Positions 3,094 to 64,000 of a stretch of DNA of 64,000 bases are shown one piece after another. Position 1 is the stretch's first letter. Each line of letters begins with the position of its first letter. Made by a program: the position numbers and the translations under genes. Below the pieces are notes generated by a model that did no database searches, was not told where the DNA came from, and saw only the letters and a program-made list of their open reading frames with translations. The DNA comes from a bacterium (lineage in GTDB: Bacteria; UBA8248), in the NCBI GenBank assembly GCA_965221165.1, contig CBDCRP010000003.1, forward strand, positions 1,664,001-1,728,000. The letters run 5' to 3'.

Positions 3094-3879
3094 ATGCCCA
3101 TACAATCAACACCTTCGCAAAACTTGCACCCGATGATGGATATTTCCCCCGGCGATATGGTCTGCGTCATGGGCGCCGGCGGCAAGGCCACGCTCATGAA
3201 GCGGCTCATCCGGGAGATGCTGGGTGAGCCGTTTCCCGTCATCATTACCAGCACGACGAATCTCCATGCCCTGGGTGGTGAAAATTCGCCGCCCGTTCTA
3301 CTGAGCGAGGAGGGACGCGTCGAGTTGCAATCCGTCGTCAAGGATTGGTCCATGCGTGGCGCCGTTGTTTGGGTGGAGAGGAAATTGCCACAAAACATGT
3401 TCCGTGGCCTCGAGGCGAACCAGGTGGAAGCGTTGCACCGCTCTGATTTTCACGGCGTGATGGTTGTAAAAACAGACGGGGCCAGAAAACGGCTCATCAA
3501 GGCCCCGGGGCCAAATGAGCCGGTTATCCCAAAAGGAGCGACACATTGCGTCCTCGTGTTGGGGCTCGTTGCAATTGGACAAAAAGCGGACGAGCGAATT
3601 GTTCATCGCATGGAAAAAGTTCGCGCCATAGCGGGCTTGAAAGCCGGGGAAGTCATCGAGCCACATCATTTGACGGGGCTGGCGAGTCATCCGGATAGCT
3701 ATCCGCATCGTTTTCCTCCAAACGCAAAGCGAATACTTTATTTGAGCCATTGCACCTCTAAAAAGGCCCTTCAGGATGCCCAAACGATATTCGAGGCCGT
3801 ACCGGATGGCATGTACGATGACCTGCTCGCAGGAGATTCAGTCACGGGAAATTTTTATCGCAAAGGATTACATGAATGA
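3094..3879 (+). CDS. yqeC: YqeC-family selenium-dependent molybdenum hydroxylase accessory protein
   Basis: MGAGGKATL, ITSTTNL, DGARKRLIKAP..EPVIP, VHRME motifs typical of YqeC; start uncertain. Confidence 0.75.
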   Translation: MPIQSTPSQNLHPMMDISPGDMVCVMGAGGKATLMKRLIREMLGEPFPVIITSTTNLHALGGENSPPVLLSEEGRVELQSVVKDWSMRGAVVWVERKLPQNMFRGLEANQVEALHRSDFHGVMVVKTDGARKRLIKAPGPNEPVIPKGATHCVLVLGLVAIGQKADERIVHRMEKVRAIAGLKAGEVIEPHHLTGLASHPDSYPHRFPPNAKRILYLSHCTSKKALQDAQTIFEAVPDGMYDDLLAGDSVTGNFYRKGLHE

Positions 3880-5033
3880 TCGGCGCAGCCGCTATCAGAA
3901 AATCCCTTGAAACCCGAAAAGATGAAATCATCGAACAAATCGCCCATGTGGTGAATATCGACTCCCCGACGTTTCCCAATAAGGGAACGAACGCTGTTTC
4001 CTCCCATTTTGCGGAAAAATACCTTGAAATGGGGGCCGAAGTGGAGATGATTCCAGGCACGCATGAAACGGGAGATCATCTTTTGGCGACGTTTCATGGC
4101 GCAAGAAAAAACGGCCCCCATATATTCCTGGTCGGGCATTGCGACACCGTTTTTGCAGAGGGAACCGCCGCGCAACGGCCGTTCACCATAAAAGACGGGA
4201 TGGCCTACGGCCCCGGGGTGGTTGATATGAAAGGATGTCTGGTGGTTTGCCAATTCGTGATGGAAGCGTTACTGGCCGAAGGGTTCGAAGAGTTCACGAA
4301 AATTCAAATTTTATACGACACCGATGAAGAACGCGGGAACCCCTCATCGAGAAAAGTGATAGAGCGAATCGGAAGAGACGCCGCCGCCGCGTTGATAATC
4401 GAGTCCGGCCGTGCAAACGGCTCCATCGTATCTTCGAGGAAAGGAAGTTGCTACGGGAAATTGCTCGTCAGCGGCGTCTCGGCCCATGCCGGCGTTGACC
4501 CTCAAAGAGGCAGAAGCGCTGTTCATGAGCTCGCCCACAATATGGTAGCCATCCAAAACCTGGAGCGAGGAGGCGGCACCATCAACATCACCGGTCTCTC
4601 AGGTGGGTACAGGCCGCATATCGTGGCGGATGAGGCTTCTTGCCACATTGAAGTGCGCGCGGAACGTCAGACAACCCTCGATTCCATGACGGATGAACTG
4701 CACCGCATAACTTCCGAACCCCACATCGAGGGAACAAGCCTGGAATTCAAAAAAATCAGCGGAAGACCCGCCATGGAATTCAACCACAGGACGGAAAAGC
4801 TCTTGTCCGCCGCGGCGGAAATCGCACAGGAGGCGGGCGTCAAATTTCAGTACGGCCCCACCGGCGGAGGTTCCGATGGAAATTATCTCTCCCCTCTCGG
4901 AGTCGCCGTTCTCGACGGATTAGGTCCTGTAGGAGGAAATTTACATACGGATGAAGAATACCTGGAACTCGACTCCATCGCCCCAAGAGGCGCGCTGCTC
5001 GGAGGGTTGCTTGAAAGTTTATCCTCACGGTGA
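3876..5033 (+). CDS. M20 family metallopeptidase (carboxypeptidase G2-like)
   Basis: GHCDTV, GPGVVDMKG, DEERG, SAHAG, GGGSDGN, HTDEEY; ATGA overlap with upstream gene. Confidence 0.92.
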   Translation: MIGAAAIRKSLETRKDEIIEQIAHVVNIDSPTFPNKGTNAVSSHFAEKYLEMGAEVEMIPGTHETGDHLLATFHGARKNGPHIFLVGHCDTVFAEGTAAQRPFTIKDGMAYGPGVVDMKGCLVVCQFVMEALLAEGFEEFTKIQILYDTDEERGNPSSRKVIERIGRDAAAALIIESGRANGSIVSSRKGSCYGKLLVSGVSAHAGVDPQRGRSAVHELAHNMVAIQNLERGGGTINITGLSGGYRPHIVADEASCHIEVRAERQTTLDSMTDELHRITSEPHIEGTSLEFKKISGRPAMEFNHRTEKLLSAAAEIAQEAGVKFQYGPTGGGSDGNYLSPLGVAVLDGLGPVGGNLHTDEEYLELDSIAPRGALLGGLLESLSSR

Positions 5034-5051
5034 GGTGTATAGCGGGAGTCC

Positions 5052-8312: not shown

Positions 8313-8942
8313 TTATCCCTGGTCCATCGTTCCAGAACTTGACCAAGACAAAACGGACACTTTCATTTGGGTGGTCGGCTTATGTGCAGTTGATTTCCTT
8401 TGAAGTGTGCGGCGGATAATGCCGATCGCCTGATTGCTGCTCCAATCCGTCACTCCCACCACCCAAGCGACTAATTGCTGCTCGCGGTCGATGAGGTACA
8501 CCGTCGGCACGTAGCGCACATTGTGCATACGGCGAGACGCCCAGTTCTGATCGTGGAAAATCGGATAGTTCAACTTCTTGTTCTTGGCCCATTTTTGCAC
8601 AAACCCAGGGCCGGCCCTATCCACGGAAACAGCCAGAACCGTAAAACCCTCGTCCTCATATTTTTTCTGGAGGGCCGAAAACTTGGGCATCTCCTCCTCG
8701 CACAAAGGACACCATGTGGCGAAAAAAACGAGCATCACCACTTTGCCTTTAAAATCACTGAGTTTGTGCTGCTTTCCCGTGAGGTCCGGATATTGAAAAT
8801 CAGGGGGCGGCACGGAGTTTTCAGGAGCCATTCGCAAGACGTTAAAACGACTTTGGGCATCCGCCGGATCAGACGACACTGTCAGGAACAAGAGAACACC
8901 AAGAGCGAGGAAACACAGTCTGGAGAATGGAATTGGTCGCAT
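8313..8942 (-). CDS. TlpA/ResA-like exported thiol-disulfide oxidoreductase
   Basis: Signal peptide, LSDFKGKVV, FFATWCPLC (CxxC), VPT cis-Pro loop; AAGGGAG RBS before ATG 8942. Confidence 0.88.
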   Translation of the reverse strand: MRPIPFSRLCFLALGVLLFLTVSSDPADAQSRFNVLRMAPENSVPPPDFQYPDLTGKQHKLSDFKGKVVMLVFFATWCPLCEEEMPKFSALQKKYEDEGFTVLAVSVDRAGPGFVQKWAKNKKLNYPIFHDQNWASRRMHNVRYVPTVYLIDREQQLVAWVVGVTDWSSNQAIGIIRRTLQRKSTAHKPTTQMKVSVLSWSSSGTMDQG

Positions 8943-9031
8943 GGTGCTCCCTTGTGTAGACTTAAAATAGCCCAATGCAAGATAGCATATTTCAGATTAT
9001 TCGAGCCAAAGGAGACTTGCAATACATTTTG

Positions 9032-9910
9032 ATGGAAAGGAAACCGGCCATGTGGCTCATCTTCGCCATGCTATCGCTTCTCATCCTTCATGTTTCCGCA
9101 CAGGGCGCACTAAATACCTGCGAGAGAGATTCCAAACTTATCAAAATCCCTGCGGGCCCTTTTTCGATGGGCAGCGACAGGGCCGAGCGTGATTATGGTT
9201 ATCGAATAGGCAGCCGCGCCGCGCGCAGATGGCGCTGGTTCGACAACTGGGAACTTCCGCGCAAACGCGTCGTCTTGGCCGAATACTTTATTGACAGGAA
9301 CCTGACGACTCAGGCCGAATACCGCCGCTTCGTGTGGGAGAACGGCCATCGCGCTCCTTTCATTTCGCCCAAAAATTATAAACATCAAGGCTATCTCGTT
9401 CATTCCTATGAGTCCGTGCGGCGCTATCTTTGGGGGAAAAACAAAGACGGTCGGCCGACATACTCGAAAGGTCTAGCGAATCATCCCGTCGTGCTCGTAA
9501 GTCAATCAGACGCGCAGGCCTACTGCATCTGGCGGGGCGGAAAAGCTCCAGCGAGATACCGACTGCCCACGGAGGCGGAATGGGAAAAGGCGGCGCGCGG
9601 CGCCGATGCCAGATATTTCCCCTGGGGCAACACCTTCGATCCCGAACGCCTGAACTTTGGCTACAAGGTGCACGCCACAACGCCCGTTGGCACGTATCCG
9701 AAGGGCAAAAGCCCGTATGGCGTGCTCGACATGGCGGGAAACGTCTTCGAGTGGACATCCACCCCGTTTTCAAAATCAAAAGCCACGATGAAAGGGGGTG
9801 GGTCCTGGGACGATCAGCCGGGTATCACGCGGGCAGCCGCTCGCCATGGACGGGACCCGAAGGCCCGGCACCTACTTTTTGGTTTTCGGTGTGTTTGCGT
9901 AAACCCATAA
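9032..9910 (+). CDS. Formylglycine-generating enzyme (SUMF1/FGE-sulfatase) domain protein, exported
   Basis: GPFSMGS, HPVVLVS, RLPTEAEWEKAARG, DMAGNVFEW, GFRC; start may be 9050. Confidence 0.9.
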   Translation: MERKPAMWLIFAMLSLLILHVSAQGALNTCERDSKLIKIPAGPFSMGSDRAERDYGYRIGSRAARRWRWFDNWELPRKRVVLAEYFIDRNLTTQAEYRRFVWENGHRAPFISPKNYKHQGYLVHSYESVRRYLWGKNKDGRPTYSKGLANHPVVLVSQSDAQAYCIWRGGKAPARYRLPTEAEWEKAARGADARYFPWGNTFDPERLNFGYKVHATTPVGTYPKGKSPYGVLDMAGNVFEWTSTPFSKSKATMKGGGSWDDQPGITRAAARHGRDPKARHLLFGFRCVCVNP

Positions 9911-10085
9911 GACCAAATGACCCATGAAACATTGCCGATATCGTCAGAGTCACAAAATAGTTACATTCATCCATACTCGCTTGATGAAGGAATGCGCGTC
10001 CAGACAGGAAAATGCTTGAAGACCCTTCTTGCACATTCCTCATATAACTGAGAATCTCCTTCCCTTATCATCAGGGGAGCACGTC

Positions 10086-10685
10086 ATGGCTTGGATAGAA
10101 CCTATTTCTCCGGATTCCGCGGAGGGAACCACAAAAAAAATTATAGAAGGTCTGCGTAAGGCGAAAAAACCAATTCCCAAGATATTTCTTCAGATGGGCA
10201 GAAGGCCCGATGTTTTGGCCGGTCGCGAAATGCTCCGCAGTTCGGTCCATGGCGGCTCCAGCCTCGGAACGAGGCGGGAGGAATTGCTCGCCTTTTATGT
10301 GGCGGCTCATGGGGGGTGATACGGCTGAGCGATGAACCACGGACAGTTGTTCCGTGACGCGTGCGATGATGCCTCCATCGCTGAAGTAGGCCAGGTATTA
10401 GACGAGCCAAAACGCGCGAGAATTCTCGACCCTGCCGACCGCGCCATGCTCGCCTATGCGGAAAAAATGACCCATACGCCTCATCAAATGAAAAAAACAG
10501 ACATCGAGCGCTTAAGGTGTGCCGGCTTCAGCGAGGAAAACATCGTCGACATCATCGCGGCTGCGGCTTACAGAAACTTCGCCAATTCGATCAACTACGC
10601 CTACGGACACGTAGAGCAAAATCCCAAAGGCCCAAAGGAGCTGAAATCGGCCATTCAGAGGTTAAAAAAGAAAATTCGTGGATAA
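10086..10685 (+). CDS. AhpD/carboxymuconolactone-decarboxylase-like protein with two in-frame UGA (predicted Sec, UxxU motif)
   Basis: ORFs 10029-10319 and 10332-10685 are in one frame joined by TGA-TAC-GGC-TGA-GCG: REELLAFYVAAHGG-U-YG-U-AMNHG matches the AhpD-like E...CxxC..H motif; GGGGAG RBS before 10086; hairpin at 10338-10356. Confidence 0.85.
10338..10356 (+). promoter_or_regulatory. Candidate bacterial SECIS hairpin for the UxxU gene
   Basis: CACGG-AC-AGTT-GT-T-CCGTG; loop starts 16 nt after the second UGA and 25 nt after the first, G at second loop position. Confidence 0.6.
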
Positions 10686-11421
10686 AAAATCTCACGCGCT
10701 CTCATCTATTTCCTATCTGGGCTTGTTCATATCGAGCGCTTGCGCGCTGGCCGCTGTGGCGTCAGGGCTGGGTCATCGCTGGGGCTTATGGCATTTCAGC
10801 ATGGGATTTCAGATTTTCAAGGCCGCATCCATCATTGCGTTGATCTCCGTGGCCGTCTCCATAACGGGAGGCCTGTTTGCCCTGCGCGACGCTTCGAAGT
10901 TCAAGACTTCGGCCGCCGCCCTCGGCATCGCATTAGGTTTCACCGTAGCGGGCTTTCTTCACGCACACATGCAAATCTCGAGACGGGTACCCAAGATTCA
11001 CGACATCACGACAGACACTCAAAACCCGCCCTCTTTTCAAGACATCCTCCCACTGAGAAAAAGAGCGAAAAACCCACCCGCTTATGAGGGCATACGCATC
11101 GCACGGCTCCAGAAAAAAATGTATCCGGATATCAAGCCACTCATTTCCCGAGATTCAAAAGAGGAAATTTTCAAACGCGCTTTGGCCGCTGTACGCGCCA
11201 TCGGTTGGCAAGTGGTGACGTCAAAACCAGCCGAAGGACGTATCGAGGCGTATGACAATACTTTTTGGTATGGCTTTATCGATGACATCGTAATCCGGAT
11301 AACGTCGAATAATGGGATGACGCGCCTCGACATCCGCTCGAAATCCCGTGTGGGCGTAGGCGACATAGGCGCGAATGCCAGGCGAATTCGCACCTTTTTC
11401 GAAAAGCTAAAAGTAAGATAG
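10678..11421 (+). CDS. DUF1499 family membrane protein
   Basis: Three N-terminal hydrophobic helices, IHDITTD..NPP.F, YPDIKPL, GFIDDIVIR, RSKSRVGVGDIGANARRI. Confidence 0.85.
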   Translation: MDKKSHALSSISYLGLFISSACALAAVASGLGHRWGLWHFSMGFQIFKAASIIALISVAVSITGGLFALRDASKFKTSAAALGIALGFTVAGFLHAHMQISRRVPKIHDITTDTQNPPSFQDILPLRKRAKNPPAYEGIRIARLQKKMYPDIKPLISRDSKEEIFKRALAAVRAIGWQVVTSKPAEGRIEAYDNTFWYGFIDDIVIRITSNNGMTRLDIRSKSRVGVGDIGANARRIRTFFEKLKVR

Positions 11422-11497
11422 ACTGGGATATTCCACTTTTGTGATCGGGGATTCGCCATGAAATGATGATGTTTTGAGCATCGTATTGAGGACGCTA

Positions 11498-13816
11498 ATG
11501 TCTGAATACCTAATATTAGGCAAATCCATACCAAGACTCGATTCCGCAGAGAAAGTTTCCGGATTCGCCGATTTTGGAGATGACTTGCGCAGGCCCGGTT
11601 GCCTCACTGCGAAATTGCTCTTGAGTCCGCACCCCCATGCCCAAATCAAAAAAATCGACACCACCGATGCTTTGAAGATTCCCGGCGTACACGCTGTCGT
11701 CACGGCGGAGAATTTCTCCGGCATCCGCCACGGCAGGCTCGTGCGCGATGAACCGCTGCTCGCCATCGACAAAGTGCTTCACATCGGCGAGCGCGTGGCC
11801 GCCGTGGCCGCCGAAACCCCGGAAGCCGCGCAGGCCGCACTCAAGAAAATTCATGTAGATTATGAAGTGCTCCCCGCCGTATTCACGACAGACGACGCCC
11901 TGAAAGATGACGCTCCCCTCCTCCATGACTCCCTGGATGATTACACGTCGTTTCCGGGTATCGTGCGGTATGGAAACGTAGCCACCGATATTCTTATCCG
12001 ATCGGGCGACCCAATAGAGGAAGCGCTCACTCGGGCTGATTTCGTTTTCGAGGACGAATACGAAACGCCCCGCGTTCACCAGAATTATCTCGAACCCCGC
12101 GCCATGCTCGCGGAACCCGGACCCGAGGACAGCACGGTAGTCTATTCACCCACCCAGGCGGCTTTCGTGGTGCGCGCTATCGCTTCGGAAATACTCGAAC
12201 TTCCCATGAACAAACTACGCGTTGTGAGCACTCATGTAGGAGGCGCTTTCGGTGGCAAATCCCAACATCTACTGGAAGCCCTAGCCGTTCTTTTGAGCAG
12301 AAAATCGAACCGGCCCGTTCAACTGACTCTCAATCGCGAAGAGGAAACCATCACCGGAAACCCGAGGCACGCATACCGTATGCGCTATCGCACAGGCGTG
12401 ACGCGGGAAGGAAAAATCATCGGGCGCCACGTGCAAATAACATCGAACAACGGTGCCTATTGCATGACGGGTCCGATGGTGCTTGGAAAATCCTGCTACA
12501 CCAGTACGGGACCATACAAAATTCCCAATGTCAGGGTCGATGGTCTACTCGTATATACGAACCTTCCCCCCAGCGGTTCTTATCGGGGTCTGGGCGTGGC
12601 ACAGGTCGCTTTCGCCTGCGAGCGACATACTGACCGCATTGCTTCAGAATTAGGAATGGACCCACTCACTTTTCGGCTCCTTAATGCGATGGGTGAAAAC
12701 GATGCGGACCCCGCCGGTACGATTTTACAAAGCGTGAGCATAAAGGAAACGCTTGAACGCGCGGGCCAAAAAGCGGGCTGGGGGAAGCAGAAGGAGGAAA
12801 ATCAGGGCCTCAGAATCAGGCGGGGTTTGGGCATCGGCTGCGCGCGCTATCCCACGGGTGGAGGGGCATCGGGCGCCGTGGTGAAGGTGAACGAGGATGG
12901 GGGCTTGGCTGTATTGGCCGGCTGTTCCGACCTGGGCACGGGCGCGGCTACCTTGATGGCGCAGGTGGCGGCTGAGGTTCTGCAATCCGACATCGAAAAA
13001 GTTAGCGTTCGTATCGCCGACACCGAAACCACGCCCTTCGACTCCATCACCGCGGGTAGCCGCACCACGTTCAACATGGCGCACGCAGTGCGCATGGCGG
13101 CGGAAGATGCTCGCGAGCAATTGCTTCGCCAAGCGGCGCGCATGCTCGAATCATCCCCTGAGGACCTGGACATCGGCGATGGAAATATATTCATGCGCGC
13201 AGCGCCCTCGCGCGCCATTCCGTTCGCTGAAGTGGCGTATTCCGCTGTATGGAAAGGCGACGGACCCGTGACCGGTCGCGGTGCCTACCGTGGAGAGAAT
13301 CCTCCTCATCGGACGGATAATGTGCGTGGCCATCCAGAGCCCTCGAGACCCGGACCAGAATTTGCCACCCAAATCGCAGAAGTCGAAGTCGACACCGAGA
13401 CAGGAGAAACCAAGGTCTTAAGAATCACCAGCGCGCAAGATGTGGGCTTCGCCATGAACCCCCTCACCCTGAACGGACAGATAGAGGGCGGCATTGCGCA
13501 GGGGCTGGGCTGGGCTCTGGCCGAGCAGATTCACCATGAAAAGGGCGTCATCGTTCATGCGGATTTCGAGAGCCAACTCAACCCCACGAGTTTGGATGTC
13601 TCGGAAATCGAAAGCGTGATTGTGGAATCGCCCGATGTGGAAGGTCCCTTTGGAGCCAAGGGAGCGGGGGAAATGCCGCTCATTCCAGCGGCGCCCGCGA
13701 TTGCCAACGCGATCGCCGATGCCATCGGGGATCCGGCCAACCCGAACCTCAACAACCTGCCTATCGCACCGGAGGACATCGTTCGCGCGGTTCGCGAACA
13801 AAACGCTTCCGAATAA
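11498..13816 (+). CDS. Xanthine dehydrogenase family molybdopterin-binding (large) subunit
   Basis: SPHPHAQI, YLEPRA, VGGAFGGK, SYRGLG, GSRTT, GQIEGG, GAKGAGE. Confidence 0.93.
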   Translation: MSEYLILGKSIPRLDSAEKVSGFADFGDDLRRPGCLTAKLLLSPHPHAQIKKIDTTDALKIPGVHAVVTAENFSGIRHGRLVRDEPLLAIDKVLHIGERVAAVAAETPEAAQAALKKIHVDYEVLPAVFTTDDALKDDAPLLHDSLDDYTSFPGIVRYGNVATDILIRSGDPIEEALTRADFVFEDEYETPRVHQNYLEPRAMLAEPGPEDSTVVYSPTQAAFVVRAIASEILELPMNKLRVVSTHVGGAFGGKSQHLLEALAVLLSRKSNRPVQLTLNREEETITGNPRHAYRMRYRTGVTREGKIIGRHVQITSNNGAYCMTGPMVLGKSCYTSTGPYKIPNVRVDGLLVYTNLPPSGSYRGLGVAQVAFACERHTDRIASELGMDPLTFRLLNAMGENDADPAGTILQSVSIKETLERAGQKAGWGKQKEENQGLRIRRGLGIGCARYPTGGGASGAVVKVNEDGGLAVLAGCSDLGTGAATLMAQVAAEVLQSDIEKVSVRIADTETTPFDSITAGSRTTFNMAHAVRMAAEDAREQLLRQAARMLESSPEDLDIGDGNIFMRAAPSRAIPFAEVAYSAVWKGDGPVTGRGAYRGENPPHRTDNVRGHPEPSRPGPEFATQIAEVEVDTETGETKVLRITSAQDVGFAMNPLTLNGQIEGGIAQGLGWALAEQIHHEKGVIVHADFESQLNPTSLDVSEIESVIVESPDVEGPFGAKGAGEMPLIPAAPAIANAIADAIGDPANPNLNNLPIAPEDIVRAVREQNASE

Positions 13817-13821
13817 GCTTC

Positions 13822-15102
13822 TTAGTTTTTCAGTTCAAATTTCTCGTCATAAACATAAAAGTTCGATGACGCCGCGATATCTCGCGCCTGTGTGATGAGC
13901 TTGCGCGACAATCTTGAAATGTACGAATTCTTGAGAAACTCGACATAGAAATTGTAGTAAAAAGCATCGGGCCGCACATGAACGCGCACCCTGAGCCTCG
14001 CCGCACCCTCGGCTCGTCCTCTTCTGTATCGAAACGTGATGGATTTTTGAGGGGGAATGCGCGTGTCATAGATTTCGCGGCTAAAATCAGGCGAAAGTTT
14101 CCGCTCGATCACATTAATCTGCCTTGACCCCGGTATGGTTCGCCCACTCTTATTCTCCAGCTCGGAGATGACATCCACAGAAGGCGTAATATAGGTAGGG
14201 AAATAATGCCCGGCACCTGAGTTCGTGAGCTTAATTTCGGCCGTGACGATTTGCCCGGGCGCTTCCTCCCCGAGCGTGACGTCTATTTGCACGGCGCCCT
14301 GGGTCATATCCTTATCATGTATGCCTCGCCATAGATGTGCACGCCCGGGCATGTGACAACTCTGGCAAGCAATGCCCTCTTTGCCCCAAAGCGAGTTTTT
14401 CCACTCGTTGTACGTGTTCTGAATCGATTTCCCGTTCGGCCCGGGAAACGTGTGCTGGTGGCAACCCATGCAAAATTCAGCACGGCTGAAAAAAAGCGTG
14501 CGTTCTACCCCTGCGTGTGGACCACTCCTTGTCGTGTCATCCACCCCTTCGGGGGTTTCCTTCTTGGGTGGACCGTACACACGCCAATCACGCACATGGC
14601 ATGCGGCGCAGGCCAGTCCGTGCATCTCCAGTTTTCGATCGTGGATTGGGTTTTTCCGCCAATTCGCAAAAGGACCCGCACCCAACTTCGCGCGCTTCTG
14701 CTGTTCCGCCAAAGGCGCATGGCACTCATTACAACTTTGTGCTTCCTCGGGACTTGTTTTCCACATATCGACGAGTTGTCCATAGATGCCCGGGCTCATC
14801 GCGTTGGCGTGAAGCGTGGTCTTCCATTGTTTGTACTGATCGAGATGACAACTCCCGCAACTCTCGGGCAAAAGAGAACGCTCAGCGCCTTTGTATGATT
14901 TCGGCACCTCACCCATCGGGGACAAAGGGTAGGCGAAATGCTCCTTCACGAAATCCCGCCAATGTTTCCATTTGCCGGGAATCTCTTTTTCTTCCGCCGT
15001 CTCGATGGAGGAGAAGGCGAATCCATTTGATGTCTTCTGAAAAATAAAAGAGAGGACGAGAAAGTAAATAGCAACGATTATAACCATGAAATTCAAGCGC
15101 AT
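13822..15102 (-). CDS. Multiheme c-type cytochrome (5 CxxCH motifs)
   Basis: CGSCH, CNECH, CAACH, CMGCH, CQSCH; N-terminal hydrophobic anchor; NSGAGHYFPT. Confidence 0.9.
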   Translation of the reverse strand: MRLNFMVIIVAIYFLVLSFIFQKTSNGFAFSSIETAEEKEIPGKWKHWRDFVKEHFAYPLSPMGEVPKSYKGAERSLLPESCGSCHLDQYKQWKTTLHANAMSPGIYGQLVDMWKTSPEEAQSCNECHAPLAEQQKRAKLGAGPFANWRKNPIHDRKLEMHGLACAACHVRDWRVYGPPKKETPEGVDDTTRSGPHAGVERTLFFSRAEFCMGCHQHTFPGPNGKSIQNTYNEWKNSLWGKEGIACQSCHMPGRAHLWRGIHDKDMTQGAVQIDVTLGEEAPGQIVTAEIKLTNSGAGHYFPTYITPSVDVISELENKSGRTIPGSRQINVIERKLSPDFSREIYDTRIPPQKSITFRYRRGRAEGAARLRVRVHVRPDAFYYNFYVEFLKNSYISRLSRKLITQARDIAASSNFYVYDEKFELKN

Positions 15103-15985: not shown

Positions 15986-16465
15986 TCAACGCCCCTCTCG
16001 ATTTCTCTTGAGAGGTATAACATCCGCATGCTCCTGATCATTATTGTGGCGGTGGCCCCGCCAAGAAGAAGGCCAGACATATCGCACGCGCCATAGGGTT
16101 CGGGCAGCTCCTCCCACCGCCCACGTGACGACGCTTCCCGCAGCGCGCGTTCTCCGTCCCAGCGAGCGAAACGCCTTTTTCCCGCCCTCTTCACCAATCG
16201 AGACGAGGCGCGACGTAGCCTCTTTGGCTGCGCCAATCGGCCGGAGGGCCTGCTCGATCGCCTGACGCAAAATCCATTTCAGAACCAAGCAAAACACAAT
16301 CGAAAAAGCGAAAAATACGCCGAACACCTTAAGCCCGCGCGCGGGCTCATCCACTATCATGACGCTCATTTGGGCGATGCCGTAAAATATCAGGCCCACC
16401 ATGGCCAAACAAACGGCCACGGCGCCGCCCGAGCGCGTGATCACCCGGAATAAACCAAACATCAT
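15986..16465 (-). CDS. Hypothetical membrane protein
   Basis: Two hydrophobic helices, GGAG RBS; fills the gap between GNAT and serS. Confidence 0.55.
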
Positions 16466-16640
16466 CGTCTCCGAATTTCCGCCGGCGCCAGAGAATACTT
16501 CTGATTCGACTAGAATACCTCATTTTCGAAATCGAAATCCACCGCGGAGGTTTCATGTAGTACAGATATTTCCGTTGACGCGCGCAAACTCTCGTTTTAT
16601 GTTCACTAGCCGATATGGAAACCAAATGAGGAGCAAGAAA

Positions 16641-17924
16641 TTGTTCGACATCCGTCTCATCAGAAACAACCCCGAAGCGGTGGCGCGCGCACTCGCCCGC
16701 AGGGGCGGCGATTGGGACCTCTCCGGAATACTGAAAATCGACGCCCGAAGGCGGGACTTGACCCACCAGGTCGAAAGCCGGGTGGCCGACGTGAGAAAGC
16801 GCAGCAAAAAAATCGGTGAACTCAAACGCAATAAAGCGTCCGATGAGGAGGTCGAAGCATTTTTGGCCGAAAATCACCGATTGACCGCCGAGGCGAAATC
16901 CATAGAGGGAGAACTGGCCGAACTCGCGCAAAAACAAAACGATTTTCTGCTCGATCTCCCCAACGCGCCGCATGAGACCACCCCCGACGGCCAAAGCGCC
17001 GATGACAACACCCTCCTGAGGGCTTGGGGCGAAAGGCCGGTTTTTGGTTTCGAGCCCAAAGCGCATGATGATTTGGGCGAAGCCTTGGGCATTCTGGACA
17101 TGAAGCGCGCCGTAAAGATAGCAGGCGCGCGTTTTGCGCTGTACCGGGGCGCGGGGGCGCGTTTGGAGCGCGCCCTCATCAACTTCATGCTCGACCTGCA
17201 TACGAACGAGCACGGCTACACCGAGTGGCTTCCCCCCTTCATGGTGAACCCTGCGGCCATGACCGGCACCGGCCAGTTGCCGAAATTCGAAGAAGACCTC
17301 TTCCGGGTCGATGACGGAAAATTCTACCTGATTCCCACCGCCGAGGTGCCCGTCACCAACATCCACAGGGAGGAAATCCTGGACGGGCGGGATTTGCCGC
17401 TCAAATACACGGCCTATTCCCCTTGCTTCAGGAGCGAGGCGGGCTCCTACGGCCAGGATACGCGCGGCCTCATCCGCCTGCACCAGTTCAACAAGGTCGA
17501 ACTCGTCAAATTCGCCCGGCCCGAGGAGAGCTACGGGGAACTCGAAAGCTTGACCGCCGACGCCGAGGAAATCCTGAAGCGCCTGGGGCTTCACTACCGC
17601 GTCGTCGCGCTGTGCGCGGGGGATTTGGGTTTTTCCGCCGCCAAGACGTATGACATCGAGGTCTGGGTGCCCTCGCAGAACACCTACCGGGAAATCTCTT
17701 CTTGCAGTAATTTCGAGGATTTCCAGGCCAGGCGCGCCCAGATCCGCTATCGCCCCGAGCCGGGGGCCAGACCAGAACTCCTCCACACCCTAAACGGCTC
17801 GGGCCTCGCCGTGGGACGCACGCTGGTGGCGATTCTGGAGAATTTTCAGCGCGAAGACGGCTCCGTCGAGATACCCGAAATTCTAAGGCCCTACATGGGG
17901 GGAATGGCCTCCATTTCGGCCTAA
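16641..17924 (+). CDS. serS: Serine--tRNA ligase
   Basis: TTG start after GAGGAG; [52 protein letters not shown]. Confidence 0.97.
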
Positions 17925-18109: not shown

Positions 18110-18374
18110 TGCATCCTCGTGCGGTGAACGTGCGATGCGGACCAGTCCCCACCGAAGAGGTCGGGTGACGACCACCCTTTGAGGCCGCCCCACCCCGAGG
18201 AGGGGAAGACTGCGGTTTTCCGACCGGGGAGGCTCGTGGTTTTGCAGGGGTGGAAGCTCGCGCGTGTCCGCCCGGGCCATGGGAACGCCCCCCGGATAAT
18301 TGTCGTTGCCGACCATTGTCGGTGGATTTATAATACTTTTCATCCGGTTTCACGGTATCTCAAGGAGGATAACC

Positions 18375-19472
18375 ATGGCCGACACCGACGAGAGGCTCTT
18401 CGGCACGGACGGCGACGACACCATTGACGCAGAAGGCGGCAGCGACACCATCCTGGGCGATGCGGGCGACGACGACCTCACCGGCGGAACGGGCCGCGAC
18501 ATCATCCGCGGCGGCAGCGGAACGGACACCATCTACGGCGGCGCGGACGGCGACATCCTCAGAGGCGACAGCGGGGATGACACCATTTACGGCGGCGATG
18601 GCAACGACATGCTCGTGGGTGATTCCGGGGTCGATACGATAGACGGCGGGGCGGACAACGACACCATTGCCGGCGGCTCTGGGAACGACAACCTCACGGG
18701 CGGAGCCGGCGAGGACACGTTCGTGTTCATCGAGAACTCGGGCGACGACACTATCACCGATTTCGTCGTGGGCGCCGACACGATCGATCTGAGCATGATC
18801 CAGGAGGCGATCGCGTATGCGGACCTCACCATCACGCAGGTCGGGAGCGACACTACGATCACGCACACCGCGCTCGGCGGAACCATCACCCTCACCGGCG
18901 TGACGGCAACCGACCTCACCGCATCGAACTTCAACATGCCCGACGGGTCGACCACCTCGCTGACCACCGAGGAGAACGACAAGCTCCAGCGATACGCCAA
19001 CCCCTGGGAGGGAACCGACAGTTCCGACATCTACCTCGACGGTGCGAACGACACGCGGCTCTTGGGCAAGGGCGGCAACGACGTGCTCATGGCCGGCGAG
19101 GGCGACGACATGGTCGAGGGCGGCGCGGGTAATGACCTCCTGATGGGCGAGGAGGGGGACGACACCATCGACGGCGGGGCCGACGACGACACCCTGTGGG
19201 GCGGCAGCGGGGATGATACCTTCGTCTTCCAGGCCGGCCACGGGAACGACACCATCAAGGATTTCAAGGACGTCTCCGGCGGTGAGAACGACAAGATCGA
19301 CCTCACCGCATTCACCGGCATCACCGCTTTTACGGGTCTCGACGGCAAAATCACGCAGGACGGCGACGACACGAAGATCGACTTGAGCTCCTTTGGTGGG
19401 GGCGAGATCATCATCGAGGACTTCACCTCGACCGACCTGGGCGCAGAGGATTTCGACTTCTACACGATGTGA
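18375..19472 (+). CDS. RTX/hemolysin-type calcium-binding repeat protein (paralog 1)
   Basis: Many GGxGxDxIx nonapeptides, very acidic; AAGGAGG RBS; ends DFDFYTM. Confidence 0.92.
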   Translation: MADTDERLFGTDGDDTIDAEGGSDTILGDAGDDDLTGGTGRDIIRGGSGTDTIYGGADGDILRGDSGDDTIYGGDGNDMLVGDSGVDTIDGGADNDTIAGGSGNDNLTGGAGEDTFVFIENSGDDTITDFVVGADTIDLSMIQEAIAYADLTITQVGSDTTITHTALGGTITLTGVTATDLTASNFNMPDGSTTSLTTEENDKLQRYANPWEGTDSSDIYLDGANDTRLLGKGGNDVLMAGEGDDMVEGGAGNDLLMGEEGDDTIDGGADDDTLWGGSGDDTFVFQAGHGNDTIKDFKDVSGGENDKIDLTAFTGITAFTGLDGKITQDGDDTKIDLSSFGGGEIIIEDFTSTDLGAEDFDFYTM

Positions 19473-19504: not shown

Positions 19505-19680
19505 GGCGCATGCGCGGACAGGGGGACACGCAGGTCCGCCCCTACGGACTCGTTCGTCGCCCCCGTCATTCCGACCCCCGTAGGGGCCGACCTATGTGTC
19601 GGCCCGTTTTTATATGTCCGTTATTTTCATACCGGCCCGCCACCATCGTTCCGGCGTCAATTCCGACCGGGAAGGGGAAG
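19505..19680. repeat. REP-like palindrome cluster A
   Basis: GTAGGGGCCGACCTATGTGTCGGCCC (19580-19605) with an inverted partner ending ..GGTCCGCCCCTAC. Confidence 0.8.
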
Positions 19681-19889
19681 GCGGAGACTGCGCTCCTTTA
19701 CCGAGGGATGGACGCCCTGAGAAGGGAACTGGACCAAAACTACGAGGCGGAAAACGGCCTCAGGCAGCCCTCAGCCGATATGTGCCAAAAGAAATTACCC
19801 AGCATCTACAGGACTTGACCTATTTAAATATTATATGGCACCATTTTTCTCTATTTCACAGTCTTGTGAAAGGACAGTGGAGAACGAAC

Positions 19890-35710: not shown

Positions 35711-35913
35711 GTGGGACCGCTCATGGGTCGGGGATACAAAAAGCCGGGACGATGCAGCGCTAAAGTAGTTATCGGTAAAATTTCTCCGGCGGGCTGCGGA
35801 TGTCGCCATTTCGCCCGCAATGGGGTTACAATGGATTTTCAAATACCCGATCGCGCGAAGCCCTTGGCGCGGGTATCTTTCTTCGCGCCAAATGCGGAAA
35901 GGCAACCCGAAGC

Positions 35914-36777
35914 ATGTCTTATTCGAAGTTAGTCGAACTCTCGGAGGGAAAGGCTTACGTCCTCCACAACACGTTTCCGCTGGATGGCCGAATCAGCGCT
36001 TATCCCATCAGCGCGCGCGGGCATAGCGTCTCGAACTGCTATCTCTTGAAAGAAGAAACAGGCGCGCTTCTGCTCGATACGGGCTACGCCGTTCACGAAG
36101 CCGAAATCCTGGCGCAGCTCGCATCCGTTCTCGACCCCGAGACGCCGCTGTCGCTCCTTCCGCTTCGCATCAACGAATTCATGTCGGTGGGCAACGCCAT
36201 GGCGATCGCCAAGCGCTTCAACGTGGTGGAATGCCTGGCCCCCGTGCCGAAAATAAACGAGTGGCTCGAGTTCGAAACGATTGATCCGGGCGGCGGGAAC
36301 AACGGCAACCCCACCCTCAACACTACGCTATTGAAACCACTCCACCCCTTTGAAATCGGCGAGAGATACATCGAAGTCATGAACGCGCCGATCCGTCTCA
36401 TCAACACCCGCTGGATTTACGACGAGGCCACGCGCACGCTGTTCTCCTCGGACATGTTCTCCCACATCTGGCAAGAACGCGCCGACGGCCCCTGGATGCT
36501 GGATGAAGACGACGTGACGACAAACGCCTTCGTCCGCTCGTTTTTACTGAACACCCGCTACTGGTGGCTCGAGGGCGCGAGGACGGACGACATCCGAAAA
36601 GGGGTCGCCGAAGTCTTCGAGCGTTATGAAATCGAAACCATCGCTCCGGGATACGGCGTCATCCTGCGCGGACGTCATCTGGTCGAGCGGCAATTCTCCG
36701 TGCTCGACGAGGTTCTGGCGGGCCTAGACCGCACGGTCGTCAAACCAGGATACGTCGCCTTGGGCCTCGAGAGATAG
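35914..36777 (+). CDS. Metallo-beta-lactamase-fold protein (FprA N-domain-like), metal ligands degenerate
   Basis: NCYLL..LLDTG, IYDEATRTLFSSDMF, IAPGYG; LRINEFMS in place of HxExxH. Confidence 0.7.
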   Translation: MSYSKLVELSEGKAYVLHNTFPLDGRISAYPISARGHSVSNCYLLKEETGALLLDTGYAVHEAEILAQLASVLDPETPLSLLPLRINEFMSVGNAMAIAKRFNVVECLAPVPKINEWLEFETIDPGGGNNGNPTLNTTLLKPLHPFEIGERYIEVMNAPIRLINTRWIYDEATRTLFSSDMFSHIWQERADGPWMLDEDDVTTNAFVRSFLLNTRYWWLEGARTDDIRKGVAEVFERYEIETIAPGYGVILRGRHLVERQFSVLDEVLAGLDRTVVKPGYVALGLER

Positions 36778-36786
36778 GATAAATTC

Positions 36787-37548
36787 ATGAGTTATCCGCT
36801 GCCCCGTGAAATATCGACCGGCGTCTTCTGGCTCGGCGACTGCCTCGTACAACACTCCCAGGGGAAAATCTACCACTCCTACAATGCGGCTTTTCTCGTC
36901 ATCGGCTCGGAAGCCTCCATACTCGTGGAGACGGGGCATCCCAAGGATTTTCCCGCCATCGAGGGGCAGATGCGAGACATTCTGGCCAGAGGCGGCGGGC
37001 CGCTCAAGCACCTGTTCCTGACCCATCAGGAAACCCCCCATTCGGGCGGTCTGGGCCGCGTGCTCGACCGATACCCCGACCTCACCATCCACGGGGATAT
37101 GTGCGACTACCACCTGGCGTTCCCCCAACACGCGGATCGCTTCAAGGAAATGCGGGTGGGAGAGGCCATCGACTTGGGGAACACGAGGTTCATGGCCGTG
37201 GAGCCCGTGATCAGGGACTTGAGGAGTTCTCTTTGGGGATTCGAGACCGCCGGGCGGGTGCTCTTTCCCGGAGACGGCTTCGCCTACAGCCACTACCATA
37301 CGGACGGGCATTGCGGCATGTTCGCGGAGGAGGCCACCTCTCTCGACCTGGTCGACGTGCTGGGCGTATTCGCGGAGCGCGCCCTGTTCTGGACCACCTT
37401 CACCGACATGAACATCTATGCCGACAAGCTCGAAGAACTGATGGATAAGCTGAACGTCGGGGTGGTCGCTCCGACCCACGGCCTCCCGATAAGGAACATC
37501 GCGCAAACGATGCCCAAGGTGAGAGAAGGCCTCGTCAGAGACGAGTAA
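36787..37548 (+). CDS. Metallo-beta-lactamase-fold protein (FprA/flavodiiron N-domain-like, stand-alone)
   Basis: YNAAFLV, VETG, THQETPHSGG, LFPGDGF, VAPTHG. Confidence 0.8.
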   Translation: MSYPLPREISTGVFWLGDCLVQHSQGKIYHSYNAAFLVIGSEASILVETGHPKDFPAIEGQMRDILARGGGPLKHLFLTHQETPHSGGLGRVLDRYPDLTIHGDMCDYHLAFPQHADRFKEMRVGEAIDLGNTRFMAVEPVIRDLRSSLWGFETAGRVLFPGDGFAYSHYHTDGHCGMFAEEATSLDLVDVLGVFAERALFWTTFTDMNIYADKLEELMDKLNVGVVAPTHGLPIRNIAQTMPKVREGLVRDE

Positions 37549-38205: not shown

Positions 38206-38766
38206 ATGGAAGGCCCGATTGATGGACACGGCACGTCCACGGTTCCGGGTGAGCGCGTCATCGACAAGCCCGAACACCCCGCCGGGGGGCTTTATACGGA
38301 CAACACCGTCCACACCGAGATGCACGAGGGCGCTCTTCAGCTCAAGCGCGGCAGGGCGGGAGATTTCGAGATATTCTGCGACGAGGGCGCCGGGATCGGC
38401 GGCACGGCCCGATACCCCACCCCGATGGCCTATCTCGCGATGGCGACGGGGTTCTGACTGCTCACCCAGGTGTCGCGGTACGCGCACATGATGAAAATGG
38501 AAATCAAGGGGGCGAGCGTCTCGGTCCGGTTCAAAAAGCTGCTGGGCGGCTCCGTTTTGAAGGGAACCGTGTTCAACAAGTGGGAGAGCGTGGACACGCA
38601 CCTGAAAGTCGAATCGGACGAGCCTGCGGACAAGCTCGCGCATCTCATCAAAAACGCCAAGAACGGCTGTTTCGCCGAGGGCTTGATCACCGAGCCGGTG
38701 CCTTTGAACTCCACCGTGGAGGTGAACGGCGAGCCGTTCAGAATCGAAGGGGTAACGGCGGACTGA
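38206..38766 (+). CDS. OsmC/Ohr-like protein with in-frame UGA (predicted Sec) at 38455-38457
   Basis: DEGAGIGG..PTPMAYLAMATGF-U-LLTQVSRYA places U at the first OsmC Cys; second Cys in NGCF; TAAGGAG RBS; ORFs 38080-38457 and 38470-38766 share a frame. Confidence 0.88.
38470..38487 (+). promoter_or_regulatory. Candidate bacterial SECIS hairpin for the OsmC-like gene
   Basis: GTG-T-CGC-GGTAC-GCG-CAC: bulged U, G-starting loop about 19 nt after UGA. Confidence 0.65.
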
Positions 38767-38788
38767 CCCGCCATATATGGAGCCATCA

Positions 38789-39238
38789 ATGGAATACTTC
38801 GACGCGTCGCCCGACATATCATTCGGCTCACAGCCCGAGCCTGCGGATCTCGAATCCCTCGCAGATAGAGGGGTCAGGACCATCATCAACACGCGCTTTC
38901 CCGAGGAAGACCAGGGCGAGTTGCCGCCCGCGCGCGCGAAGGCCGAGGCCGAGGCGCTGGGGATGCGCTACGTGAACATCCCCGTCTCGCCGGTGGAGTT
39001 CAGTCCCGATTCGCTCGCCGAGGTGAGCCGCGCGCTCGATGAGTCCAAGGCCCACGGGCCTACGTTCGTGCACTGAAAGGCCACTGGGCGGGCCGGGATT
39101 TGCTCGCTGAACCATCTGGCGGATGAGAACGCGTGGAGCGCGGGGGAGATGGAGGGGGCCGCCGACGCCACGGGCTTCGACTGGCGCGAAGCGCCGCTGG
39201 CGCCCAAATACCGCGAATTCTTCGCGCAGAGGGGATGA
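38789..39238 (+). CDS. DUF442/phosphatase-fold sulfurtransferase-like protein with in-frame UGA (predicted Sec) at 39074-39076
   Basis: SQP..DL..LA..GVRTIIN.R..EE, LGMRYVNIPV, GPTFVH-U-KATGRA equals the H-C-x4-R active loop; frame stays open 53 codons to TGA 39238. Confidence 0.85.
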
Positions 39239-42452: not shown

Positions 42453-42463
42453 GGGGTTCCTCT

Positions 42464-45016: not shown

Positions 45017-45262
45017 GGGGTCCTCTTCCTCGTGTCGAAATATCCACCTTTTGGATACCTTTCTTTTAGAACTTTTCTCCGAGGAGAGCAATCTCACCCG
45101 GCTTTTCCGGCGGAAAACTAACCCCGCCCCCCATTCATGTCAAAACATCAATTTCCCGTGAATAGTCCCCATAAAACACCCTTCATTCACGCTGAACCGC
45201 CTAAATAACGTGAATGGATTTTCCGCTATGAGGAGTACGCGCGGTCGCAATTGTCTTTCTTC

Positions 45263-61515: not shown

Positions 61516-61523
61516 ACGCGACC

Positions 61524-62273: not shown

Positions 62274-63556
62274 TGAGCACCGACCCAACAATCATATGCC
62301 CGGAGTGTTCTGAGGAGATCAAACTTACAGAGTCATTAGCAGCGCCTCTTATCAAAACCGTCCAAACGGAATACGAGGCAAAAATCACTGAGAAAGAAAT
62401 GGAAGTTTCAAAGCGCGAGAATGAAATTCGCGCCCAACAAAGAGATATCGAGCGCGCGCAAAATGCGATTGATGAACAAGTTGCAGAAAAACTAAAAATG
62501 GAACGCGCTGCAATTTCGGAGGAGGAAGCTCAAAAGGCGAAACGTGCCGCTGCGTCTGACCTAGAAGCTAAAACAAAGGAGTTGGAAGAACTCGAAGAAG
62601 TCCTTAAGCAACGTGATCAGAAGCTGGAAGAGGCACAAAAAGCTGAAGCTGAACTACGTCGTAAGCAGCGCGAACTCGATGATGCCAAGCGCGAGTTAGA
62701 GCTAACTGTGGAAAAACGTGTCCAAGCCTCCGTGGAGGAAGTACGACAGAAAGCGAAGCAAGATGCAGAAGAAGACCTCAGGCTCACGGTCACAGAAAAG
62801 GAAGAACAGATTTCCTCGATGAAGCGCCAAATTGAGGATTTACAAAAAAAGGCAGAACAAGGATCCCAACAACTACAAGGGGAAGCTCTTGAACTGGAGC
62901 TTGAAACAAGATTGAACGTGAAATTTTCGTCAGATAGCATCGAGCCTGTTCCGAAAGGTGAGTCTGGCGCTGATGTGATCCAAAAGGTTGTTGGTCCGAT
63001 AGGTCAGACTTGTGGTCATATCCTCTGGGAATCAAAAAGGACTAAAAACTGGAACGATGAATGGCTTGCAAAACTCAGAAATGACCAACGCGCGGCCAAA
63101 GCGGAGATTGCTATTATCGTATCGACTGCATTGCCAAAAGACATAGAGACATTCGGGAATAGAGACGGCGTATGGATAACAGAACCTCGTTTTGCAATGC
63201 CACTGGCGGGTTGTCTTCGCCAATCTTTAATCGACGTGGCGAATACCCGAAAAGCACAAGAGGGTCAAGAAACAAAAATGGAGATGGTTTACCAGTATTT
63301 GACGGGGCCAGGATTCAAACACCGGGTAGAAGCAATCGTTGAAAAATTTTCAGATATGCAAGAGGACCTCGATAGAGAACGAAAAACCATGACACGATTG
63401 TGGGCGAAGCGCGAAGCACAAATCCAAGGAGTCATAGAATCAACGGCTGGCATGTATGGAGATCTCCAAGGCATTGCTGGCCGTGAACTTCAAGAAATTG
63501 AAAGTTTGGAGATCCCTCTTCTTGACGCCGGTGTGATTGATCATGATGGTGAGTAA
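62274..63556 (+). CDS. DUF2130 family coiled-coil protein with C-terminal nuclease-like domain
   Basis: IICPEC..I.L, long coiled coil, GSQQLQGE.LE, ILWESKRTKNW; AT-richer; AGGAG RBS. Confidence 0.85.
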
Positions 63557-63716
63557 CAACAAAAGGATCGTAGTACGATGACCAAATATATGCGCATATC
63601 GAATTTTAGGAGCTTTGCAGAGTTTGTTTTTGAAATAAGAAGGTCCTAGGGTTCAAGATTTCGTCAATTGAAGCACGAATTTTTTGAAAAATTACATTGC
63701 AAGAAGGAGTGGGTTC

Positions 63717-64000
63717 ATGTCCAGAGTCCCGTTGCTCGGCCGAGAAGGCGCGGAGGGAGAGATCGCGCGCACCTTCGGCATCCTGGGTAACTTCCAGCGC
63801 AGGCAGGTCAATTCCACCCGGGCGACGGCGCACTCCCCGTTTCTCGCCCGCATTTTCTATCCCCTCGTCCAGACCCTGATGCGCGAGGGGCTCGGCACCG
63901 TCCTCTCCTCCAGGATAAAAGAAATCGCCGTCATCAAAACCAGCCGGATGAACGGGTGTGACTACTGACTCGCCCACAACACCGCTCTCGGCCGGGTGCT
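63717..64000 (+). CDS. AhpD/CMD-like protein with CxxU motif (predicted Sec, UGA 63966-63968); runs off the window
   Basis: KEIAVIKTSRMNG-C-DY-U-LAHNTALGRV; AAGGAG RBS; frame open to window end. Confidence 0.85.

Follow-up and report, generated by a model that had tools for sequence, protein, structure and literature searches.

Selenoprotein families were compiled in a review of May 2026 (PMC13188914), Table 1 of which lists 119 of them. AhpD-like proteins stand there as a CxxU form with one selenocysteine (Sec, U), and the same table holds OsmC-like, UGSC, DUF3179, DsbA-like and deiodinase-like proteins, rhodanese forms and a methyltransferase. In the literature searched, a UxxU motif was described only in Prx-like, FmdB-type and putative mercuric-reductase families, and a double Sec in ferredoxin-thioredoxin reductase. 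The model of the bacterial Sec insertion sequence (SECIS) in the available part of PMC13188914 has G in the first two loop positions and a distance of 16-37 nucleotides (nt) from the UGA. Among DUF442 proteins, the domain of Blh is described in the available part of PMC5823870 as having sulfurtransferase activity, thiosulfate:cyanide or thiosulfate:glutathione (GSH). These systems are compared here with four genes that contain in-frame TGA codons in a 64-kb stretch of a bacterial genome of the UBA8248 lineage. The stretch (hereafter the window) is C3:1664001-1728000 of a 3.69-Mb genome in three contigs, with 59% G+C, an estimated completeness of 96.34% and an estimated contamination of 8.47%. 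Coordinates without a prefix are window positions; those prefixed C2 or C3 are positions in the genome contigs.

The window very probably carries four selenoprotein genes with five UGA-Sec codons, as part of a genome-wide habit. In-frame TGAs were located at 10317, 10326, 38455, 39074 and 63966, in four genes numbered here in window order. The initial annotation had placed each of the five in frame at a catalytic Cys, and this held on verification: every TGA sits within a single domain match in the Pfam scan, at the CxxC pair of AhpD-like proteins (genes 1 and 4), at the UxxT position of OsmC (gene 2) and at the nucleophile of the CX4R P-loop of DUF442 (gene 3). TGC or TGT in relatives, which had been named as counter-evidence, was looked for. 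Relatives down to 30-45% identity keep TGA at these codons, the one exception being a genus with TGT at the first UxxU position of gene 1, which reads as the Cys/Sec exchange expected of a redox site. Cys counterparts were provided by this TGT for the first position of gene 1, by the homologue P0037 for gene 3, and by Cys-bearing family models for genes 2 and 4; most in-genome paralogues are Sec forms. Each gene also has a hairpin downstream of its UGA, with G at the first or second position of the apical loop. The loops start 28 and 19 nt past the first and second UGA of gene 1, 23 nt past that of gene 2, 20 nt past that of gene 3 and about 24 nt past that of gene 4, all within the range of the model. 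Such a hairpin, 19-28 nt past the UGA, would recruit SelB and Sec-tRNA(Sec), and Sec would take the place of the redox or nucleophilic Cys found in relatives or paralogues. From these features we infer that Sec is actually inserted at the UGAs.

Gene 4, together with at least 13 paralogues, has the catalogued AhpD-like CxxU form, with Sec at the second position. Its 5' part (63717..64000, + strand) runs off the window, which contains the first 94 residues, and includes the Sec codon 63966-63968 in the motif C-D-Y-U and a match to Pfam CMD. The TIGR01926 score was 27.4 bits (cut-off 81.8) for the 105-residue window fragment, the only part scored; its orthologues and paralogues cluster with the family. 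All 59 matches have one TGA, and all 23 genomes of the genus are represented. The SECIS-like hairpin (63984..63999, +) has a G-G-C-C tetraloop, G-G-U-C in paralogues. When 10 CxxU AhpD paralogues were compared, each of the six predicted pairs showed at least one double-sided change that was still paired, with some cells broken.

Gene 4 is assigned to the known AhpD-like CxxU type, frameshifted in this strain. Its open frame here has 144 residues against 226-328 in 17 orthologues. The frame is lost at C3:~1728093, some 93 nt outside the window. There, following '...T-V-L-W', a G run is one base shorter than the reading frame of the paralogues requires, and the frame goes on in another phase. 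At this G run, contigs of the runs X1 and X2 (95-96% of sampled words; these may be the source sample) match the assembly without a gap, and an extra base is found in contigs of X3 and X6 and in minor variants in X1 and X2. The shortened frame, the missing base and the gapless contigs, set beside the longer variants, make it rather probable that gene 4 is a pseudogene in this strain, its Sec codon being genuine in the lineage. This is tempered by the possible origin of X1 and X2 from the source sample, in which case they are not independent of the assembly, and by the loss of rare variants in contigs; a truncated product of 140 residues with a CxxU centre might still fold.

Gene 1 (10086..10685, +) encodes a 199-residue AhpD-like protein of the same catalogued family (TIGR01926 / COG2128), its score of 90.5 bits being above the NCBIfam cut-off of 81.8; Pfam CMD was matched as well. 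Unlike the catalogued CxxU form, which has a single Sec, it has Sec at both positions of the motif G-G-U-Y-G-U (codons 10317-10319 and 10326-10328, residues U78 and U81). Matches were found in 45 of the 51 genomes of the phylum, and both TGAs are kept in 24 of these matches, at 51-99% identity and in three genera (19 in its own genus, this genome included, one in a second and four in a third). The full motif was read in 23 loci. In a 53% identical match from a further genus, TGT occupies the first position and a single TGA remains (G-G-C-Y-G-U), and a paralogue family 47% identical to gene 1 has C-Y-G-U. At the first position Cys and Sec are thus interchanged, which fits a redox pair. The hairpin of gene 1 (10338..10356, +) has the apical loop A-G-U-U. 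It was found in all 24 orthologous loci read, with loops AGUU, GGUC or GGUCC, and an A/G change in the stem still pairs with U. Being within accepted distance of both UGAs, this one hairpin probably serves both, and the product would be an AhpD-like protein with a diselenide-capable UxxU centre. No UxxU motif tied to AhpD-like proteins was found in the literature searched, and gene 1 is predicted to be a new double-Sec variant of a known family.

Gene 1 shares the stretch 8313-11421 with a Cys-type redoxin gene (-), a gene with an FGE-sulfatase domain and an overlapping DUF1499 gene. The last of these comes after the UxxU gene at every one of the 18 other loci of the genus and at one locus from a different genus; an FGE neighbour was seen at only 7 of the 23 other loci.

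Gene 2 (38206..38766, +; Sec codon 38455-38457, motif G-F-U-L-L-T) is a known selenoprotein type. It matched NF041052, OsmC-related (seleno)protein, at 164.2 bits (cut-off 95), and Pfam OsmC at 46.8 bits across the TGA. With this model, and with the 'OsmC-like protein, UxxT' of the 2026 catalogue, it shares the U-L-L-T motif and a second conserved Cys, and no essential difference from known OsmC-type selenoproteins was seen. Its product would be an OsmC-type seleno-peroxidase homologue. The hairpin (38470..38487, +) has one bulged U in the stem and the loop G-U-A, which is the same in two paralogues. In each of 20 same-genus loci the motif with its TGA immediately precedes gene 3, and the neighbourhood reading showed the two genes side by side in 18 of 19 loci. 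OsmC was near DUF442 in none of 26 more distant or DUF442-paralogue loci, so that adjacency to a Sec-DUF442 gene is a feature of the genus only.

Two weak metallo-beta-lactamase-fold genes (35800..37548, +), with matches below or near the cut-offs, lie upstream of genes 2 and 3, and the second of them keeps its place within the genus. A conserved system formed by these genes and genes 2 and 3 was considered and dropped because the link is only genus-deep. Directly downstream of the OsmC/DUF442 pair is a type I restriction-modification locus (40029-45097, -) with a fused methylase-specificity gene and an R subunit.

Gene 3 (38777..39238, +; likely start ATG 38789, 149 residues) encodes a sulfurtransferase-like protein of DUF442 / PF04273, with the Sec codon 39074-39076 (U100) in the motif H-U-K-A-T-G-R-A-G-I-C-S-L. 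Pfam BLH_phosphatase/DUF442 was matched at 52 bits (cut-off 26.1) over residues 11-106, with U100 inside the match; the paralogue scored 41.4 bits. A six-frame search of all 51 species genomes of the phylum gave 59 matches in 36 genomes, and 56 of these matches have exactly one TGA. Of the remaining three, one has two TGAs, one is a C-terminal fragment short of the site and one, 34% identical, has no stop. The motif H-U-[KRA]-x-x-G-R-A-G-[IV]-C-S-L was read in all 20 same-genus loci and in 16 distant or paralogous ones, and conservation continues past the TGA: in an alignment of 12 sequences (40-93% identity), H99, U100, G104, R105, A106, G107, C109, S110 and L111 are among the invariant residues. 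All 20 orthologues retain the internal TGA, although their final stop varies (TGA in 5, TAA or TAG in 15). When one genome per species (185,579 species) was scanned by pattern, 45 loci with the motif G-R-A-G-[IV]-C-S-L-x-H were retrieved. All have TGA at the nucleophile, and all come from metagenome-assembled genomes (MAGs) whose labels are Nitrospinota, Nitrospinaceae, Candidatus Tectomicrobia or simply 'bacterium'. A full-length Cys homologue, P0037 (162 residues, 49% identical), has H-C-K-A-I-G-R-A-G-V-C, the second Cys included.

The hairpin of gene 3 (39087..39108, +) has a 7-bp stem and the 8-nt loop C-G-G-G-A-U-U-U. In 25 distinct sequences none of the seven pairs is broken, and one pair is G-U in some and A-U in others. 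At synonymous positions the stretch does not vary even among genes whose proteins are only 40-47% identical, which points to a constraint beyond the protein.

The structure of the gene 3 product was modelled with AlphaFold2 (predicted local distance difference test, pLDDT, 86.2; predicted template-modelling score, pTM, 0.83), with U100 closing strand 96-99 and preceding helix 104-118. A sequence search of the PDB gave no match at E <= 0.01; only the fold search succeeded. The best solved match was the DUF442 structure 2f46_A (E = 4.6e-8; template-modelling score, TM, 0.77/0.82), followed by 3gxh and 3gxg (TM 0.73-0.75) and then by dual-specificity and tyrosine phosphatases. The fold is that of the DUF442 domains, which include the solved proteins 2f46 and 3gxh (TM 0.73-0.82) and the N-terminal domain of Blh from Xylella and Agrobacterium (PMC5823870). 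A nucleophile at the end of a beta-strand, a CX4R loop and then a helix are common to gene 3 and DUF442 proteins. In contrast to Blh as presented in that part of the source, gene 3 is a stand-alone gene of about 150 codons without the ETHE1 dioxygenase fusion, and Sec replaces Cys. It also differs from an ordinary DUF442 homologue, P0065, which lacks the Cys nine residues after the nucleophile; this Cys is invariant in the 12 aligned gene 3 members. Rhodanese-like selenoproteins (PF00581 forms 1-5 of the 2026 catalogue, three of them in this genome) are likewise small, of sulfurtransferase type and with a Sec nucleophile. Gene 3, however, belongs to another Pfam family with a different active-site loop, and no PF00581 match was obtained.

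Because the DUF442 domain is a proven sulfurtransferase in Blh (available part of PMC5823870), gene 3 is read as a sulfur/selenium transferase with Sec as the carrier atom. By analogy, the Sec of its product most likely bears a persulfide or selenosulfide, and the subfamily-specific Cys nine residues further on would be a possible partner in this chemistry. A phosphatase, either protein-tyrosine phosphatase (PTP) or dual-specificity phosphatase (DSP), with a Sec nucleophile is an unlikely alternative. The fold matches many PTP and DSP phosphatases (TM 0.6-0.75), and Pfam also reports PTP-type families with low scores. The best structure and sequence matches are nonetheless DUF442 (2f46, 3gxh, PF04273), and the NCBIfam matches are named sulfur transferases. 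The P-loop of PTPs is HCX5R, and that of gene 3, CX4R, is one residue shorter. The assayed DUF442 domain, that of Blh, is a sulfurtransferase according to the available part of PMC5823870.

The terms DUF442, PF04273, phosphatase, tyrosine and beta-lactamase are absent from the text of PMC13188914 with its 119 families. No NCBIfam release 20 '(seleno)protein' model matches gene 3. A DUF442 or TIGR01244 selenoprotein was not found in the literature searched, though BSepDB tables and groundwater-MAG candidate lists may hold one, as they may a CoA-transferase or a UxxU AhpD-like entry. Gene 3 is a predicted member of a selenoprotein family that is missing from current catalogues.

A broader scheme was also formulated and is regarded as doubtful. 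Sec-DUF442 proteins would be phosphatase-fold selenoenzymes with a Sec100/Cys109 selenenylsulfide or perselenide relay. In this genus they would partner the neighbouring OsmC selenoprotein on reactive sulfur or selenium species, perhaps feeding selenium to SelD or a YqeB/YqeC route, and help to sustain a selenoproteome of about 60 genes. Separately, in the same scheme, the UxxU AhpD would show one SECIS routinely serving two UGAs nine nt apart.

Several observations weigh against reading the five TGAs as Sec codons in functional genes. Gene 4 is out of frame 42 codons past its Sec codon, and the X1 and X2 run contigs agree with this. Gene 3 and its paralogue reach only 50.7 and 55.1 bits with TIGR01244, below its cut-off of 85.85, and by these scores they are related to that subfamily model without belonging to it. 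No compensatory double changes were found in the gene 3 hairpin (25 sequences), which shows invariance and one one-sided change only. Covariation backs the AhpD CxxU hairpin only, and the other hairpins are backed by conservation. The predicted folding energy of the 50 nt downstream of 61 Sec sites, compared with that of 600 Cys codons, averaged -14.6 versus -13.2 kcal/mol (one-sided Mann-Whitney p = 0.006); this difference is slight, a weak statistic that is not usable alone. RNA-labelled sequencing runs contained only 5-10% of the sampled words. Finally, the genome has an estimated 8.47% contamination, and two of its Sec gene pairs are near-identical.

An explanation of the TGAs by nonsense mutation, pseudogene lesions or faulty assembly, with genes that are dead or split, is nevertheless very improbable. 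Such events do occur in this genome. The frameshift of gene 4 is real in this assembly, and an enoyl-CoA hydratase gene (C2:1289981-1290706, -), examined as a candidate and rejected, has a TGA at F-[CS]-A-G that none of 20 orthologues shares; being unique to this genome, it is taken as a nonsense codon or an error. This gene served as a negative control, showing the pattern of a plain nonsense codon. The five TGAs of the window, by contrast, occur at the same codon in 20-59 matches and in up to 36 genomes, and the protein is conserved past the TGA (in gene 3, H99, G104, R105, A106, G107, C109, S110, L111 and W136 are invariant). At the Sec TGA of gene 4, contigs of X1, X2 and X6 bridge the codon, and no difference is present among those listed (for X1 and X2 as for X6), which lends it weak support.

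The Sec-codon reading was also borne out by the decoding machinery, the absence of which had been named as counter-evidence in the initial annotation. tRNA-Sec(UCA), selA, selB and selD were searched for genome-wide, and all are present. The tRNA-Sec gene (C2:1080614-1080706) scored 75.9 bits with Rfam (cut-off 47) and was called tRNA-SeC(tca), 97 bases, by ARAGORN. The other three are above their curated cut-offs: selA (C3:1580000-1581385) with 564.2 bits, the adjoining selB (C3:1582325-1584211) with 383.8 bits, and selD (C2:975065-976027), which has one in-frame TGA of its own, with 329.8 bits. The seryl-tRNA synthetase gene, also invoked in favour of Sec, is present in the window (16401-17924), but as a housekeeping gene it has no evidential weight. 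TGA had been described as an ordinary stop elsewhere, and it is in fact the commonest stop of the genome, ending 579 of 1377 open reading frames (ORFs) of at least 350 codons (TAG 440, TAA 358), hence no reassignment; genes 2 and 3 themselves terminate in TGA. Read-through of UGA by other means, through a suppressor tRNA (Trp, Cys, Gly) or a reassigned code, is scarcely credible: nothing specific speaks for it beyond the fact that sequence alone cannot separate read-through from Sec insertion, and it is opposed by the use of TGA as the commonest stop, by recoded sites that align with Cys and not with Trp or Gly, by the canonical tRNA-Sec, selA, selB and selD, and by G-loop hairpins at the bacterial SECIS distance given in the available part of PMC13188914.

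A genome-wide scan for Sec codons was carried out. Frames joined across a TGA were sought by codon usage, and of the 194 candidates obtained 85 were chosen by eye; the 109 others, mostly with a TGA near the ORF end, were left out, and the resulting count is a lower bound that depends on this triage. Clustering gave ten groups of at least two candidates with TGA at aligned positions. Of 39 candidates examined in Pfam, 22 have the TGA within one domain or family, 14 are adjacent same-frame gene pairs and 3 have no match. A tblastn search with NCBI table 10 recovered the 51 sites known then and added 11 at Sec positions of paralogues, two of which are the gene 1 pair. A within-genome Cys/Sec scan (3589 ORFs, tblastn with table 10) returned 407 TGA sites, nearly all antisense or gene-end noise, and added only a methyltransferase site (P-U-H-R-V). 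This poor yield is explained by most paralogues of Sec genes being Sec forms themselves.

In total, about 61 Sec genes with 62 Sec codons were counted in 3.7 Mb, DUF442 and the CoA-transferase included. They comprise AhpD/CMD (15 genes), DsbA-like and UGSC (7 each), OsmC (5), Prx-like (4), deiodinase-like, PrdB-like and rhodanese (3 each), and GrdA, GrdB, DsrE and DUF442 (2 each). Single genes encode Trx, a Grx-DinB fusion, DUF3179, SelD, a methylated-DNA-protein-cysteine methyltransferase and the CoA-transferase. Two pairs of Sec genes, with 93-98% identity across 70-81 residues, could be duplicates from different strains, which would leave 59 distinct genes. The large, under-annotated selenoproteome suggested in the initial annotation was borne out by these counts and by the database homologues of gene 3, which end at the TGA. 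Among 5.8 billion proteins, 63 homologues of gene 3 were found; 58 are exactly 95 residues long, ending just before the UGA, and such stumps are named 'sulfur transferase domain-containing protein', 'hypothetical protein' or 'TIGR01244 family'. The description of the window as selenium-rich stood only in part. Four Sec genes are present, and the scan of TGA-joined frames found none in the window beyond these; at the genome density 1.06 would be expected in 64 kb (Poisson P(>=4) = 0.023). Enrichment relative to the whole genome is slight, and two of the four genes are immediate neighbours.

The subunit-A-like CoA-transferase gene (C2:359328-360155, +) has an in-frame TGA at residue 134 (E-H-A-U-A-S-V), inside the Pfam CoA_trans match (residues 38-255). 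All 35 matches of 63-100% identity, from five genera, retain the TGA; paralogues of at most 55% identity are without it. A hairpin with a GGC loop lies 26 nt past the TGA. CoA-transferase and PF01144 are absent from PMC13188914, and no CoA-transferase selenoprotein family was found in the literature searched. The gene is a possible further new selenoprotein family.

Other Sec genes outside the window were noted in passing. The Grx-DinB_2 fusion selenoprotein (C2:665134-665886, +) has U12 in its glutaredoxin domain, in the motif G-U-Y-T-C. The methylated-DNA-protein-cysteine methyltransferase homologue, a catalogued selenoprotein type, has its TGA at C3:2023882 (-), in the active-site motif P-C-H-R-V. 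A Sec formate dehydrogenase was not found: the 11 molybdopterin-oxidoreductase (PF00384) matches are all free of in-frame stops. Many ORFs, including two Sec gene pairs, are 65-97% identical between C2 ~30-107 kb and C3 ~1-53 kb and ~2,067-2,126 kb. These similar stretches may reflect segmental duplication or the co-assembly of a second strain, which would agree with the estimated contamination.

A selenium-cofactor trait had also been proposed from a YqeC gene in the window. The gene is indeed present (3094..3879, +; Pfam 109.7 bits; TIGR03172 135.9 bits, or 136.1 in the genome search, cut-off 73.05), but it is a second paralogue and not the copy beside yqeB. The search for yqeB was run and found it at C3:542652-543434 (360.6 bits, cut-off 220), with the other yqeC 3 kb away at C3:546186-546845 (154.2 bits). 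The trait itself was thereby upheld, yqeB, both yqeC and selD all being above their cut-offs; yqeC occurs in 49 of the 51 phylum genomes, mostly in two copies each. The large subunit of a molybdenum hydroxylase of the xanthine-dehydrogenase family (11474..13816, +) lies 7.6 kb from the window YqeC and is a possible client of the selenium cofactor. All its equivalog matches are below cut-off, and the selenium-dependent types are not reached (TIGR03311 401.6 against 830.45; TIGR03313 299.3 against 1101.9). All parts of the YqeB/YqeC/SelD trait of molybdenum hydroxylases are therefore found here, with the differences that the window YqeC is not beside yqeB and that the hydroxylase remains below the selenium-dependent cut-offs. 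selU (TIGR03167) was not found in this 96.34% complete genome, its absence being likely, not proven. By its gene content the genome has two of the three known selenium traits.

Two further loci of the window were recorded. A multihaem c-type cytochrome gene (13822-15102, -) with Cytochrome_C554 and MtrC/MtrF-like domains adjoins the molybdenum hydroxylase gene. Two adjacent RTX proteins (18300-19472 and 19596-21005, +) have six stretches of calcium-binding repeats each (HemolysinCabind, 120.7 and 128.2 bits).

Taken together, the initial inference of a large selenoproteome with a selenium-cofactor trait is supported, and the novelty is moderate. Three items lie outside the catalogue of 119 families: the DUF442 selenoprotein, the double-Sec AhpD-like form and the CoA-transferase with its conserved UGA. 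The prevalence of 95-residue stumps among the gene 3 homologues (58 of 63) shows how standard gene calling fails Sec-rich lineages. A phosphatase-fold protein with a Sec nucleophile would be a natural test of what selenium contributes to persulfide or phospho-transfer chemistry, and a natural UxxU site with one hairpin would be a ready system for the spacing rules of SelB-dependent decoding. The results also bear on selenium demand in the presumed marine and sponge-type habitats, to which the organism labels of relatives point.

Large bacterial selenoproteomes have been listed in BSepDB, the ten highest counts of which are 63, 57, 56, 56, 54, 50, 49, 49, 48 and 46 in the available part of PMC13326102. 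According to the same part of that source, the count of 63 belongs to the Olavius Delta 1 symbiont, and three UBA8248 MAGs, labelled Nitrospinota, Nitrospinaceae or Nitrospinae, have 54, 50 and 48. A Methylomirabilota MAG was predicted to have 63 selenoproteins (available part of PMC13188914). The count obtained here, about 61 (or 59 distinct genes), is of the same order as those of the top BSepDB genomes as presented there, and the genome's relatives bear the same organism labels as the UBA8248 MAGs; the selenoprotein richness of the lineage is probably already on record. Unlike those counts, the present one takes in families that a known-family database would miss (DUF442, CoA-transferase). 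The genome of the Delta 1 symbiont is about 13.5 Mb in size (PMC1976440), against 3.7 Mb for the genome described here, the selenoproteome of which is among the largest and densest bacterial sets reported.

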